NCBI RefSeq assembly: GCF_029227855.1
Contig: NZ_CP074356.1
DNA length: 64,000 nucleotides
Source: Escherichia coli
GTDB taxonomy: Bacteria > Pseudomonadota > Gammaproteobacteria > Enterobacterales > Enterobacteriaceae
Direction: 5' to 3' (one strand)
Shown piece by piece: positions 30,001 through 36,000 of the stretch. The first letter of the stretch is position 1. Each line of letters opens with the position of its first letter. Made by a program: the position numbers.

Positions 30001-33000
30001 CCCGCTATCCGGTAGATGGCGTGCAGTTTGACGACTATTTCTATACTGAGTCACCGGGTTCACGGCTAAATGATAACGAAACGTACCGCAAATACGGAGG
30101 CGCATTTGCGTCAAAAGCAGACTGGCGGCGCAACAATACTCAGCAGTTAATTGCGAAGGTATCGCACACCATTAAAAGCATTAAGCCGGAAGTCGAATTT
30201 GGCGTTAGCCCGGCAGGCGTGTGGCGTAACCGATCACACGATCCGCTCGGTTCCGATACCCGAGGCGCGGCAGCCTATGACGAATCCTACGCTGACACCC
30301 GTCGATGGGTGGAACAAGGATTGCTGGATTACATTGCTCCCCAAATTTACTGGCCGTTCTCACGGAGTGCCGCACGTTATGACGTTTTGGCAAAATGGTG
30401 GGCGGATGTCGTTAAACCGACCAGGACCCGCCTGTATATCGGTATCGCCTTCTATAAAGTGGGTGAACCTTCAAAGATAGAGCCAGACTGGATGATTAAC
30501 GGCGGCGTACCGGAACTGAAAAAACAGCTCGATCTTAACGATGCCGTGCCAGAAATTAGCGGCACAATCTTGTTCCGTGAGGACTATCTGAATAAACCGC
30601 AGACTCAACAAGCGGTTAGCTATCTGCAAAGTCGTTGGGGCAGTTAAACTCCCATTCATACTTTGTGACAAGCCGGTGGTTTACCCACCGGCTTGCTACC
30701 CTCTTGAAATATCCCACTAGTAATCATGCTTACTTAAGTCAAATTAACTACGCAATTAACCACACTTAGTTAAACAGTCATAAATCCCCTAATAAAAATG
30801 TATGAACATGAAAAAACATACGATATTCGCTGTCACCGAAAAATAATTACGATGGGCTATACTCTTCTGAAGAACAGTAGCGTAGATTGAAACTGTCCTA
30901 AGTCGCTTATTTGTTTTCAGTATATCTTCATATTTCAGGAGAATATGGTGCAGTTAGTCGATCTCGCACGTTGCGTTTCGTTTTGATTCCGTCTGCTTTC
31001 CCAGCCTTATAAGGGTGTGAATTATGGAGATGTATTTTAAAAGAATGAAAGATGAGTGGACCGGGCTTGTCGAACAAGCAGATCCGCTCATTCGTGCTAA
31101 AGCCGCGGAAATTGCCGTTGCGCATGCCCATTATCTGAGTATTGAGTTTTACCGAATTGTCCGTATCGACCCGCATGCCGAAGAATTCTTGAGTAATGAA
31201 CAAGTTGAGCGGCAGTTGAAAAGTGCGATGGAACGCTGGATTATTAACGTGCTTTCTGCCCAGGTTGACGATGTCGAAAGGCTAATACAAATCCAGCATA
31301 CCGTTGCGGAAGTGCATGCCCGCATAGGAATTCCGGTAGAAATTGTCGAGATGGGGTTTCGGGTGCTGAAAAAAATCCTCTATCCAGTCATCTTCTCTTC
31401 GGATTATTCCGCCGCAGAAAAACTCCAGGTCTACCATTTCTCTATTAACAGTATTGATATCGCTATGGAAGTGATGACCCGCGCGTTTACCTTTAGTGAC
31501 AGTAGTGCCTCAAAGGAAGATGAAAACTATCGTATCTTCTCGTTACTGGAAAACGCCGAAGAAGAAAAAGAACGGCAAATAGCCTCAATACTTTCATGGG
31601 AAATAGATATTATCTATAAAGTCCTGCTGGATTCTGATTTAGGCAGTAGTTTGCCTTTAAGCCAGGCTGATTTTGGCCTGTGGTTTAACCATAAAGGTCG
31701 ACATTATTTTAGCGGCATAGCCGAAGTGGGCCATATCTCCCGTCTGATTCAGGATTTCGACGGTATTTTCAATCAAACCATGCGTAATACAAGGAATTTG
31801 AATAACAGAAGTTTGCGGGTGAAATTTTTATTACAGATAAGAAATACCGTATCGCAAATTATTACCTTGCTGCGTGAATTGTTTGAAGAAGTATCGCGCC
31901 ACGAAGTCGGTATGGATGTCCTGACGAAATTACTTAACCGCCGTTTCCTGCCGACGATCTTCAAACGCGAAATTGCCCATGCCAACCGGACCGGTACACC
32001 GCTGTCAGTGCTGATTATTGACGTTGATAAATTCAAAGAGATCAACGATACGTGGGGCCATAACACTGGCGATGAAATTCTGCGTAAAGTCTCTCAGGCC
32101 TTTTATGACAACGTCCGTAGTAGTGATTATGTTTTCCGCTACGGGGGCGATGAATTTATCATTGTTTTGACTGAAGCTTCGGAAAACGAAACGTTACGTA
32201 CCGCAGAACGTATTCGCAGTCGGGTGGAGAAAACCAAACTGAAAGCCGCAAACGGCGAAGATATTGCCCTCTCACTTTCCATCGGTGCCGCCATGTTTAA
32301 TGGTCATCCTGACTATGAGCGCCTCATTCAAATAGCCGATGAAGCTCTGTATATCGCCAAAAGACGAGGTAGAAACCGTGTTGAACTCTGGAAAGCCAGT
32401 CTTTAGATGCGCCAGGATGCAGAGGTAATCATGAAGCTAACCGATGCGGATAATGCCGCCGATGGCATTTTTTTCCCCGCCCTTGAGCAAAATATGATGG
32501 GCGCGGTGTTAATTAACGAAAATGATGAAGTGATGTTTTTCAACCCCGCCGCAGAGAAGCTCTGGGGGTACAAACGTGAAGAAGTTATTGGCAATAACAT
32601 TGATATGCTGATTCCGCGGGATTTGCGTCCCGCGCATCCTGAATACATCCGTCACAACCGTGAAGGCGGTAAAGCGCGCGTCGAGGGGATGAGTCGGGAG
32701 CTGCAGCTGGAGAAAAAAGACGGCAGTAAAATCTGGACCCGTTTTGCGCTATCGAAAGTGAGCGCCGAGGGTAAAATTTATTACCTGGCGCTGGTACGGG
32801 ATGCCAGCGTAGAAATGGCGCAAAAAGAACAGACCCGACAATTGATTATTGCCGTTGACCATCTCGACCGACCGGTGATTGTCCTCGATCCGGAACGCCA
32901 TATTGTGCAGTGCAATCGCGCATTTACCGAAATGTTTGGTTACTGCATTAGCGAAGCCAGCGGTATGCAGCCCGATACACTCCTGAACATTCCTGAATTC

Positions 33001-36000
33001 CCTGCCGATAACCGCATTCGTTTACAACAGTTGCTATGGAAAACCGCCCGCGATCAGGATGAATTTCTGCTGTTGACGCGCACCGGTGAAAAAATCTGGA
33101 TTAAAGCCTCTATCAGCCCGGTTTATGACGTGCTCGCGCATCTGCAGAACCTGGTAATGACTTTCTCGGATATCACCGAAGAACGGCAAATCCGCCAGCT
33201 TGAAGGCAATATTCTCGCCGCCATGTGCAGCAGCCCGCCATTTCATGAAATGGGGGAAATCATTTGTCGTAACATCGAATCTGTACTCAACGAATCGCAT
33301 GTTTCGCTGTTCGCGCTGCGCAACGGGATGCCGATACACTGGGCGTCATCTTCGCACGGTACAGAAGTTCAAAATGCGCAAAGCTGGTCAGCGACCATTC
33401 GTCAGCGTGATGGCGCGCCGGCGGGGATCCTGCAAATTAAAACCTCGTCAGGAGCAGAAACCAGCGCCTTTATCGAACGCGTGGCAGATATCAGCCAGCA
33501 TATGGCCGCGCTGGCGCTGGAACAGGAAAAAAGCCGTCAGCATATTGAACAACTCATCCAATTTGATCCGATGACCGGTCTGCCAAATCGCAATAACCTG
33601 CACAATTACCTCGATGACCTGGTCGACAAAGCCGTCTCTCCGGTGGTGTATCTCATCGGTGTTGACCATATTCAGGATGTGATTGATAGCCTTGGCTATG
33701 CGTGGGCCGATCAGGCATTGCTGGAAGTGGTCAATCGCTTTCGTGAAAAACTCAAACCGGATCAGTATCTCTGTCGTATCGAAGGTACGCCGTTTGTCCT
33801 CGTGAGCCTGGAAAACGACGTCAGTAACATAACCCAAATCGCCGATGAGCTACGGAATGTGGTCAGCAAGCCGATAATGATTGACGATAAACCATTCCCG
33901 CTCACCTTGAGCATTGGCATCAGCTACGACGTGGGTAAAAACCGCGATTACCTGCTCTCCACTGCTCACAATGCAATGGATTATATTCGCAAGAATGGCG
34001 GTAACGGCTGGCAGTTCTTCAGCCCGGCGATGAACGAAATGGTAAAAGAGCGTTTGGTTTTAGGCGCAGCGCTGAAAGAAGCGATTAGCAATAACCAACT
34101 GAAACTGGTTTACCAGCCACAAATCTTCGCAGAAACGGGTGAACTGTACGGCATCGAAGCCCTTGCTCGCTGGCACGATCCCCTGCATGGTCATGTGCCC
34201 CCTTCACGGTTTATTCCTCTCGCAGAAGAGATCGGTGAAATCGAAAATATTGGGCGCTGGGTCATCGCGGAAGCTTGCCGTCAGTTAGCAGAATGGCGTA
34301 GCCAGAATATTCATATCCCGGCGTTATCCGTTAACTTGTCAGCGCTGCACTTTCGCAGTAATCAACTGCCTAATCAGGTGTCTGATGCAATGCACGCCTG
34401 GGGTATTGACGGCCACCAGCTGACGGTGGAAATCACGGAAAGCATGATGATGGAACACGATACCGAAATCTTTAAGCGCATTCAGATCCTGCGCGATATG
34501 GGCGTGGGTTTATCGGTAGATGATTTTGGCACGGGCTTTTCCGGATTATCCCGCTTAGTCAGTCTTCCAGTAACGGAAATCAAAATTGACAAAAGTTTTG
34601 TCGATCGTTGTCTGACCGAAAAACGCATCCTTGCCTTACTTGAAGCCATTACCAGCATTGGGCAAAGCCTTAATTTAACCGTCGTGGCGGAAGGCGTCGA
34701 AACCAAAGAGCAATTTGAGATGCTACGCAAGATCCACTGTCGCGTTATTCAGGGATATTTCTTTTCCCGCCCCCTGCCCGCCGAAGAAATTCCAGGCTGG
34801 ATGAGCAGTGTGTTACCGCTGAAAATCTGACAAATTCCTCTCGCCCGCACTCGCGGGTTTTCATTTAACGTGACACTGTCACTTAAATACTGTGATTTCA
34901 GCTACGATTCCGGGAGATTCCTTCCTTAACTTCCCCTCTTGCACCAAAACTGCACTACGCTGCACAAATGTTGATCAAAAGTTAAAAAATATAACTTTAA
35001 GCCAGCATTCTGGCGCTTATCCCGGCATGGCATGAGATCTGCATAAGCGGAAAGCGCAGCAATTTTTGTCTTATACAGGAACTGTTTATGTCGGATACCA
35101 CCGAACTGGTTGATTTAGCCGTGATCTTCCCTGATCTGGAGATCGAACTGAAATACGCCTGCGCTGATAACATCACAGGTAAAGCTATTTATCAGCAAGC
35201 GCGTTGTCTGTTACACAAGGATGCGATTACCGCGCTGGCGAAAAGTATCAGTATCGCCCAGCTGTCAGGCTTACAACTGGTGATTTACGATGCGTATCGC
35301 CCACAACAAACACAGGCGATGTTGTGGCAAGCCTGCCCAGACCCGCAATATGTTGTTGATGTGGCGGTCGGTTCTAATCACAGCCGTGGCACGGCGATCG
35401 ACCTGACGCTTCGTGATGAGCACGGGAACATCCTGGATATGGGTGCAGAGTTCGATGAAATGCACGAACGTTCCCATGCTTATCACCCTTCCGTCCCGCC
35501 CGCTGCTCAGCGCAATCGGCTGCTGCTGAATGCGATTATGACTGGCGGTGGCTTTGTCGGTATCACGAGCGAATGGTGGCACTTCGAATTACCCCAGGCA
35601 GCGAGTTACCCACTACTCGCTGATCAATTCACCTGTTTTATATCCCCTGGCACACAGCACGCCAGTTAATCAGGAAACTGTCATGAAGAGATCGATTTCG
35701 TTTCGTCCTACATTGCTCGCGATCGTCCTTGCCACAACAATGCCGGTTGCGCACGCCGCCGTACCGAAAGATATGCTGGTGATCGGTAAAGCCGCCGACC
35801 CACAAACCCTCGACCCAGCGGTGACAATTGATAATAACGACTGGACAGTGACCTACCCGTCTTATCAGCGACTGGTTCAGTACAAAACGGACGGTGATAA
35901 AGGCTCAACCGACGTTGAAGGCGATCTGGCAAGTAGCTGGAAAGCGTCTGACGATCAAAAAGAGTGGACGTTCACCCTGAAGGACAATGCTAAATTTGCC

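Follow-up and report, generated by a model that had tools for sequence, protein, structure and literature searches.

In Escherichia coli, translation of the c-di-GMP phosphodiesterase gene dosP very probably starts at the ATG at position 32431 by means of a GAGGT Shine-Dalgarno (SD) sequence and yields a protein of 799 residues, and the in-frame ATG 32407, which directly follows the stop codon of dosC, would then be a chance ATG in an untranslated spacer. The start at 32431 is supported by the existing annotation, the family profile NF008467, the energy and spacing of the SD, its conservation in 17 of 17 junctions, and published initiation in vitro. ATG 32407 is probably not the main native start. 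The window, which is the whole stretch of 64,000 nucleotides from contig NZ_CP074356.1, contains both genes, and their features are collected in Table 1.

Table 1. Features at the dosCP locus, in window coordinates
Feature	Position	Strand	Description and basis
yddY	30945..30986	+	13-codon small ORF in the dosC leader; translation; K-12 equivalent annotated b4746
dosC (dgcO/yddV) CDS	31024..32406	+	460 aa, globin-coupled diguanylate cyclase; ORF, Pfam and RefSeq
dosC stop codon TAG	32404-32406	+	read from the window sequence
Abutting ATG	32407..32409	+	in frame with dosC and dosP; opens the longest ORF (807 aa)
Longest dosP ORF	32407..34830	+	807 aa; ORF listing
dosC-dosP intercistronic spacer	32407..32430	+	24 nt; alignments
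Shine-Dalgarno GAGGT	32422..32426	+	4 nt before ATG 32431; 5 nt after the GAGG core
Second ATG	32431-32433	+	same frame, 24 nt downstream of ATG 32407; gives 799 aa
dosP (pdeO/yddU) CDS as annotated	32431..34830	+	799 aa: heme-PAS, PAS, degenerate GGDEF, EAL; c-di-GMP phosphodiesterase
Terminator-like GC-rich hairpin and T-run	34840..34868	+	just 3' of the dosP stop; pattern match only

The two genes are the known two-gene dosCP (dgcO-pdeO) operon, whose expression belongs to stationary phase or low oxygen. DosC has the Pfam domains Protoglobin (26-155), DosC_2nd (180-289) and GGDEF (297-452), the equivalent upstream CDS is named 'diguanylate cyclase DosC' in RefSeq, and dosC lies directly upstream of dosP also in the Citrobacter, L011 and L013 loci (L011 and L013 being orthologs of 83% and 64% identity). 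DosP, in the numbering of the 807-residue ORF, has PAS_9/PAS (32-132), PAS_4 (150-261), GGDEF (386-533) and EAL (555-789) domains, and the residues W53, H77, M95 and R97, including the heme ligands His77/Met95, are found at their positions in this numbering; heme binding and catalysis are predicted. The equivalog profile NF008467 of NCBIfam (DosP, oxygen-sensing c-di-GMP phosphodiesterase) is matched with 1641.5 bits against a cut-off of 857, and as positions 1-800 of its 800 align with residues 9-807 of the longest ORF, the beginning of the model coincides with the second ATG. The same start is annotated in RefSeq, where the equivalent of 32431, 24 nt after the dosC stop, was found in every genome checked (118UI, BL21(DE3), U13A, K-12 and others). 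K-12 has the same genes in the same order with the same gap (b1490-b1489, yddV-yddU; NC_000913.3, UniProt P76129), its junction matches that of the window exactly in the 36 nt that precede the start, and its dosP, annotated at 1563334..1565733 (NP_416006.4), starts at the position corresponding to 32431 and gives 799 aa; across the locus the window strain is about 98% identical to K-12, with no relevant difference. Upstream of dosC, yddY, reported to encode a validated small protein that is induced at low Mg2+ via PhoQP (PMC11429745), adjoins this region and has no part in the question of the dosP start codon. An Rfam search gave no match at the dosCP locus, and the putative terminator downstream of dosP consists of GCCCGCACTCGCGGGT followed by TTTCATTTAA.

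The junction reads ...tctTAGATGcgccaggatgcaGAGGTaatcATGaagcta..., and the frame across it translates as L*MRQDAEVIMKLTDADNAADG, with the eight residues MRQDAEVI between the two ATGs. The original prediction had placed the beginning of the dosP track ORF at 32407, immediately after the dosC stop, which is what the ORF listing gives, and the string that it quoted for the SD, gcagaggtaatcATG, occurs exactly in the window. Its proposal that this SD precedes ATG 32431 and leads to the 799-residue product is supported by the predicted pairing with the 3' end of the 16S rRNA, where the duplex with the anti-SD ACCUCCUUA reaches -7.1 kcal/mol with a short spacer, as well as by the conservation, RefSeq and NF008467. 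Only 3.3% of the 2266 ATG triplets of the window have a pairing as strong as this, and it exceeds the median of 47 annotated starts nearby (-6.1 kcal/mol). Canonically, the complement of the anti-SD precedes an SD-led start by about 4-9 nt, and GAGGU at a distance of 4 nt falls in this range. For ATG 32407 the best pairing amounts to -3.3 kcal/mol, which is no better than that of 31% of the window ATG triplets, and at 13 nt it is badly spaced. An in-frame start codon upstream of the annotated start is not unusual, being present in 18 of the 47 neighbouring annotated genes, and the chance of an ATG somewhere in a spacer of eight codons is about 12%.

Conservation points in the same direction. 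Among 17 dosC-dosP junctions from Escherichia, Citrobacter and relatives, all 17 have kept the SD and an ATG-AAR start, with SD pairings of -6.7 to -7.1 kcal/mol; the SD is GAGGT in 16 of them and AAGGTG in the seventeenth, L013. The abutting in-frame ATG is missing in six of the 17: E. coli E69 has ATT and L011 has ATA in its place, and in C. amalonaticus, C. rodentium, C. sedlakii and L013 there is no abutting ATG and the frame is broken, an in-frame TAA or TGA lying 3-6 nt upstream of the dosP start. The two genes are 24 nt apart in Escherichia and 26 nt apart in Citrobacter, and L013 has a gap of 32 nt. In the alignments the spacer varies in its 5' half and has a conserved nucleotide sequence in its 3' half, GGATGCAGAGGTAAT; the extension's first three 'codons' vary freely (CAG to CCG within E. 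coli, CGC CAG to CCA TCG in L011), and the sequence surrounding the SD is conserved, even at the would-be third codon positions. Among the orthologs, adjacent start codon and frame are not conserved in the way expected of a coupled start at ATG 32407. An exact match to the E69-type ATT junction was not found in the complete E. coli genomes searched, the closest of which carry only the change of CAG to CCG. In the engineered strain B95.deltaA, where TAGATGCGC has become TAACACACC, the abutting ATG has been changed to a non-start codon. The abutting ATG is most likely a lineage-specific coincidence.

Translation of dosP would accordingly resemble that of an ordinary SD-led gene, in which the GAGGU at 32422-32426 would position the 30S subunit at ATG 32431. 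The protein would begin with MKLTDA, its expected N-terminus being (f)MKLTDADNAADG, and the 24 nt from the dosC TAG to this ATG would remain an untranslated spacer, the 3' half of which owes its conservation to its role as the ribosome-binding site. Within this spacer, ATG 32407 would have arisen in the E. coli lineage and be in frame by chance, and it is for this reason that the longest-ORF rule, as well as those who first cloned Ec DOS, arrived at 807 residues with the additional MRQDAEVI. As the dosC stop is only 24 nt upstream, ribosomes that terminate there may help to load the site at 32431, which would be ordinary translational coupling. In a fold of 160 nt the SD is paired to dosC codons around 32346-32355, with a probability of 0.26 for being unpaired, and a sequestration of the SD as coupling device is unsupported: C. 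amalonaticus has not kept the sequence that pairs with the SD, and in vitro the site initiates on its own. An overlapping mini-ORF of three codons (ATG 32417 CAG AGG TAA) has a pairing of only -1.9 kcal/mol, two Citrobacter species have AAG or ACG in place of its ATG, and it is regarded as a chance occurrence. At 32452-32476, within dosP codons 8-15, a hairpin with a T-run resembles a terminator; it is modestly stable (z = -1.7) and absent from Citrobacter, and the region has six such sites, in line with the 4.9 in shuffled sequence.

The original prediction had named ribosome profiling as a check. In INRI-seq, a published retapamulin profiling in vitro, a peak is listed at the annotated dosP start, the equivalent of 32431 (K-12 position 1565733), in five of five replicates with 27-46 CPM (Table S2 of PMC9825163), and the table of alternative starts has no entry for dosP, though the synthetic transcript includes the upstream ATG (PMC9825163). 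That transcript carries only GGG and six native nucleotides before the upstream ATG and no dosC translation takes place on it, which is why re-initiation is outside the reach of this assay. The same Table S2 lists the in-vivo Ribo-RET peak (Meydan et al. 2019) for dosP as 0 (PMC9825163), a value consistent with dosP being unexpressed under those conditions. dosP is absent from the TRAINSPOTTER N-terminomics supplements, and a search of the literature, which covered a part of the profiling supplements, returned no in-vivo start-site or N-terminal peptide data for dosP; that 32431 is the principal start also in vivo we infer from the evidence above. The situation is like that of other genes in Ribo-RET and INRI-seq with starts that are alternative or not those of the longest ORF, where an upstream in-frame start exists and SD, conservation and footprints decide. 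Unlike in those genes, the upstream ATG of dosP touches the stop codon of the preceding gene, a geometry that possibly allows re-initiation.

It is this geometry on which a second, minor start would depend. A stop codon directly followed by a start codon is known to permit re-initiation by translational coupling, and here TAG and ATG are directly adjacent and in frame, as expected of a coupled start. Ribosomes would then initiate mostly at 32431, and some of those terminating on dosC would start again, independently of an SD, at the AUG next to the stop, resulting in a minor 807-residue isoform that tracks dosC translation. Such a dual initiation in E. coli is unlikely, although all 14 natural E. 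coli junctions that were read carry the ATG (window, L001-L003, L006, L015-L018, L023, L024, L027, L028), 4957 of 5315 genomes share an identical 50-nt junction, the only two polymorphisms seen that would be synonymous in the extension frame (CGC to CGT and ATC to ATT) belong to the XDL/CUVET19-970 type, and the 807-residue protein is functional in vitro (PMC11543664). At a sequence divergence of about 1-2%, near-fixation within E. coli is expected anyway; conservation of the ATG does not extend beyond E. coli and its closest relatives, and in Citrobacter the frame is lost; the variation within E. coli includes a radical Q-to-P change; and 32407 has no SD and was not called as an alternative start in vitro. 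Slightly more doubtful still is the specific claim that in E. coli, and not in Citrobacter, the abutment of UAG and AUG yields a DosP that is extended by MRQDAEVI and tied to DosC synthesis. If true, E. coli would have a second, lineage-specific proteoform of its main stationary-phase c-di-GMP phosphodiesterase, and coincidentally this is the form used in all structural work.

That ATG 32407 is the true main start, as the biochemical and structural literature assumes, and that the databases are wrong is very improbable. It opens the longest ORF, and the 807-residue form is that of all structural work, with fitting numbers for W53, H77, M95 and R97: the historical Ec DOS construct (residues 1-807; PMC11543664; PMC4263535) is exactly the ORF from ATG 32407, MRQDAEVI begins or lies within the chains of PDB entries 9CDR, 9BGV and 1V9Y, and the numbering of His77/Met95 in the historical structures (1V9Y/1V9Z/1VB6, 9CDR, 9BGV) matches this ORF. 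The recombinant 807-residue protein is folded and active (PMC11543664, PMC4263535). The starts of these constructs, however, belong to the vector or to an MBP fusion (PMC11543664), which makes the 807-residue form a cloning convention that is silent on the native site. The authors working on DosP acknowledge that their protein has eight residues more than the UniProt entry and retain the 'historical numbering' for continuity (PMC11543664). Every line of evidence that favours 32431 speaks against a main start at 32407, and above all the extension cannot be made in those orthologs where an in-frame stop lies 3-6 nt ahead of the conserved ATG. Least credible of all is a read-through of the dosC amber codon into a single-chain DosC-DosP enzyme with a linker of eight residues as the purpose of the in-frame layout, for although dosC, spacer and dosP share one frame and natural in-frame fusions of the two genes show that fused proteins are at least tolerated, these fusions come from deletion, no read-through signal was identified at the junction, and, as the main reason, frame and stop codon differ among orthologs: the dosC stop is TAA in L011, which has the 24-nt gap, and of the six junctions from beyond the E. 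coli group four have a TAA or TGA stop and an out-of-frame gap of 26 or 32 nt.

A start of dosP at 32431 is an ordinary annotation detail that is already known, as RefSeq, UniProt and NCBIfam all record the 799-residue protein. The original prediction rightly called it a minor annotation point and was silent on two matters, namely that the databases had already resolved the start and that the 807 residues are those of the historical Ec DOS construct, from which the eight-residue offset in the literature stems. That the Citrobacter orthologs have a stop in frame immediately ahead of the conserved ATG is a clean reason to trust the database start. The biological weight of the finding is small and its practical value lies in the bookkeeping of residue numbers: those in the Ec DOS/DosP papers and in the PDB (His77, Met95, Arg97) are the database numbers plus 8, and recombinant 'full-length' DosP has eight residues that the native protein probably lacks.

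The dosC-dosP junction of the window reads tctTAGATGcgccaggatgcaGAGGTaatcATGaagcta, and the frame that runs across the dosC stop into dosP translates as L*MRQDAEVIMKLTDADNAADG. The ATG that touches the dosC stop is followed 24 nt downstream, in the same frame, by a second ATG that has a GAGGT ahead of it. [quoted passage not shown] Pfam assigns Protoglobin, DosC_2nd and GGDEF domains to the upstream protein (DosC) and two PAS domains, a GGDEF and an EAL domain to the downstream protein (DosP), which scores 1641.5 bits against the NCBIfam DosP equivalog NF008467 (cut-off 857). 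The 311 nt spanning the junction have matches in 5341 of 5426 complete E. coli genomes, and the annotation beneath the match is dosC and dosP. The neighbours of the operon, digH, gadC and gadB to one side, the ddp operon and osmC to the other, are arranged as in K-12, and the window shares about 98-99% identity with strains 118UI and K-12.

Coordinates of the dosCP junction, of further features of the window and of variant loci (window numbering unless a locus is named; energies of ATGs refer to anti-SD pairing)
Feature	Position	Strand	Details
dosC CDS	31024-32406	+	ORF; stop TAG at 32404-32406
Longest dosP ORF	32407..34830	+	807 aa; mechanical ORF list; opens at the ATG touching the dosC stop
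Abutting ATG	32407-32409		-3.3 kcal/mol; pairing 13 nt away; 31% of window ATGs pair at least equally well
Out-of-frame ATG	32417		-1.9 kcal/mol; adjacent, 0-nt spacer; 59% of window ATGs pair at least equally well
GAGGT	32422-32426		precedes ATG 32431
Second ATG	32431		-7.1 kcal/mol; GAGGU 4 nt before AUG; 3.3% of window ATGs pair at least equally well
yddY	30945-30986		13-codon small ORF; CAGGAG ahead; 37 nt upstream of dosC; K-12 b4746
Terminator-like hairpin	32452-32476		AATGCC...GGCATT, then TTTTTTT; within dosP codons 8-15; -11.3 kcal/mol, z = -1.7
IS200-type element	46110-46797		minus-strand Y1 transposase of 152 aa (Pfam PF01797, 3.8e-38)
STnc490 RNA (Rfam)	46661-46784	-	within the IS200-type element
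SECIS_3 (Rfam)	50796-50854	-	selenocysteine insertion element; 84.3 bits; by position in fdnG (formate dehydrogenase)
Stretch without counterpart in the matching part of 118UI	1-5300		first ~5.3 kb; ORFs of 636, 459 and 299 aa
1035-nt deletion	32332-33364 equivalent		joint at 3768-3847 of locus L026
IS1 of the same lineage	1655-2422 of L025/L026		flanked by a duplicated 8-bp stretch (window ~30941-30948)
657-nt deletion, F1022	32319-32973 equivalent		1049-aa CDS annotated dosP, 2275-5424 of L019
dosC remnant, U13A	32243-32406 equivalent		164 nt, frameshifted; 2993-3156 of L003
dosP of O157:H7 ATCC 35150	L018, 482 onward		annotated as frameshifted pseudogene
Recoded junction, B95.deltaA	32404-32412 equivalent		91-160 of L022

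As to the other features, yddY has been reported to be PhoQP-dependent and induced by low Mg2+ (PMC11429745). The hairpin within dosP is found in Escherichia and is absent from Citrobacter, and the count of such terminator-like sites in the region equals the chance expectation. The IS200-type element is missing from 118UI at that place.

The strongest argument for ATG 32431 as the start of dosP is the comparative evidence. Compared were 17 junctions, those from E. coli being the window, L001-L003, L006, L015-L018 and the divergent strain E69 (L005), and the others Escherichia sp. E1V33, E. whittamii, C. amalonaticus, C. rodentium, C. sedlakii, the 83% identical metagenome ortholog L011 and the 64% identical ortholog L013. 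In all compared loci with gene calls, a 460-aa globin-GGDEF gene lies directly upstream of dosP, and all 17 junctions have ATG-AAR preceded by an SD (GAGGT, in L013 AAGGTG; -6.7 to -7.1 kcal/mol). Among these junctions, the abutting in-frame ATG is limited to E. coli and its nearest relatives; E69 has ATT at this place and L011 has ATA. With gaps of 26 or 32 nt, L013 and the three Citrobacter species do not keep the dosC/dosP frame, and as an in-frame TAA or TGA lies 3 or 6 nt ahead of the conserved ATG, these organisms are unable to make the N-terminal extension. In the 5' part of the 24-nt spacer, non-synonymous changes are freely taken up (several E. coli genomes have CAG>CCG, and L011 has CCA TCG for CGC CAG). 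The block GGATGCAGAGGTAAT is invariant in the 24-nt-gap junctions except for one T>C and is almost fully kept in Citrobacter. Such a pattern is that of an RNA signal rather than of codons.

For ribosome binding, start candidates were scored by their pairing to ACCUCCUUA and ranked against all 2266 ATGs of the window; the 47 annotated starts of the neighbourhood have a median pairing of -6.1 kcal/mol. RefSeq places the dosP start at the equivalent of 32431, 24 nt past the dosC stop, in every record opened (118UI, BL21(DE3), U13A, K-12 MG1655, YY76-1, CUVET19-970, O157:H7 ATCC 35150, B95.deltaA, XDL, YL03, Combat11I9 and 4FM), the K-12 CDS being 1563334..1565733 (NP_416006.4). Positions 1-800 of NF008467 align to residues 9-807 of the 807-aa ORF, and thus the curated DosP family, too, starts at MKL; the biggest E. 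coli DosP protein cluster in a large collection has 799 aa and 20,917 member sequences. The ORF tool opens an ORF at the first ATG, GTG or TTG past a stop, and 18 of the 47 annotated genes around dosCP have an in-frame start codon ahead of the annotated one; the listed and the annotated start of dosP differ in the same way.

Ribosome profiling was among the checks suggested in the original prediction, and in-vitro initiation profiling has been published. In INRI-seq, 5' regions of E. coli K-12 genes, each with 51 codons and the 30 nt ahead of them, were pooled as synthetic transcripts and translated in a purified system, with initiating ribosomes stalled by retapamulin, and the annotated dosP start (1565733) gave a peak in all five replicates (45.7, 36.7, 28.7, 37.0 and 27.2 CPM) and was scored as identified (PMC9825163). 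The dosP oligo starts GGG-CTTTAGATGCGCC and hence includes the upstream ATG, and there is no dosP entry in the complete table of alternative starts, which lists any peak that exceeds 5 CPM and 10% of the oligo reads and lies 15±3 nt past a start codon (PMC9825163). As this transcript has almost no native sequence ahead of the upstream ATG and no dosC translation, re-initiation is outside its scope. For dosP, the listed in-vivo retapamulin (Ribo-RET) value is 0, which points to a lack of dosP expression in the growth conditions used.

The discrepancy between 799 and 807 aa is known and documented, as structural and biochemical work on DosP used the long form. The PDB chains 9CDR and 9BGV (806-807 residues) and 1V9Y start with or contain MRQDAEVIMKL, full-length Ec DOS runs from amino acid 1 to 807 according to a review (PMC4263535), and W53, H77, M95, R97 and Y126 of the Ec DOS literature fit these numbers only in the 807-aa frame. 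The DosP cryo-EM study acknowledges that this form is eight residues longer than the UniProt entry and keeps the residue numbers as historical numbering, and the starts of its proteins were supplied by a fusion partner or by the vector (PMC11543664), which is why they carry no information on the native start.

A stop codon with an immediate start is a geometry in which terminating ribosomes can restart, and small amounts of an 807-aa form are therefore conceivable in E. coli, if unlikely. The abutting ATG is kept in 14 of 14 natural E. coli junctions read (the divergent E69 has ATT) and is present in the variants opened of the 50-nt junction, which is identical in 4957 of 5315 genomes, the E69-type ATT being absent from the complete E. 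coli genomes searched. At 1-2% divergence, such retention is expected without selection. In the XDL/CUVET19-970 type, two substitutions would leave the residues of the extension unaltered, a very weak hint. That the 807-aa form is the main dosP product is highly improbable, and the preference for the SD-led ATG 32431 over 32407 is supported by RefSeq, NCBIfam, SD pairing, the orthologs and INRI-seq.

The dosCP locus is rearranged in some strains. A deletion of 1035 nt, in frame and with 2 nt of microhomology, joins DosC up to about residue 436 to DosP from about residue 320 (807 numbering), and the resulting 923-aa protein is a globin-GGDEF-GGDEF*-EAL fusion in which both PAS domains are gone. 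Of 5426 complete genomes, 23 carry its joint, which also turns up in 750 sample blocks of the large collection; no mention of the fusion was found in the literature searched. In this lineage, an IS1 lies between digH and dosC, on the yddY start and in the dosC leader. Strain F1022 (NZ_OY754357.1) carries a separate, independent in-frame fusion, and a protein search yielded others of 944, 983, 1015 and 1050-1054 aa; in the 1050/1054-aa singletons, DosC residue 247 is joined straight to MRQDAEVI, and these thus read through the spacer. In U13A, which has only a dosC remnant, junction and dosP are intact, the ddp operon is absent and osmC adjoins dosP, and several other strains have only a 'diguanylate cyclase domain-containing protein' beside dosP; in strains of this sort, dosP cannot be coupled to dosC translation. 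The junction of O157:H7 ATCC 35150 is unchanged.

RefSeq, UniProt and NCBIfam have already settled the choice of the dosP start, the DosP literature acknowledges the point, and it is not novel; the present check contributes the comparative argument and draws attention to the in-vitro initiation data. In the engineered RF1-free strain B95.deltaA, TAGATGCGC is changed to TAACACACC, which replaces the amber codon of dosC and removes the abutting ATG but leaves the SD and ATG 32431 as they are, and this strain is a ready-made test strain for the dosP start question.
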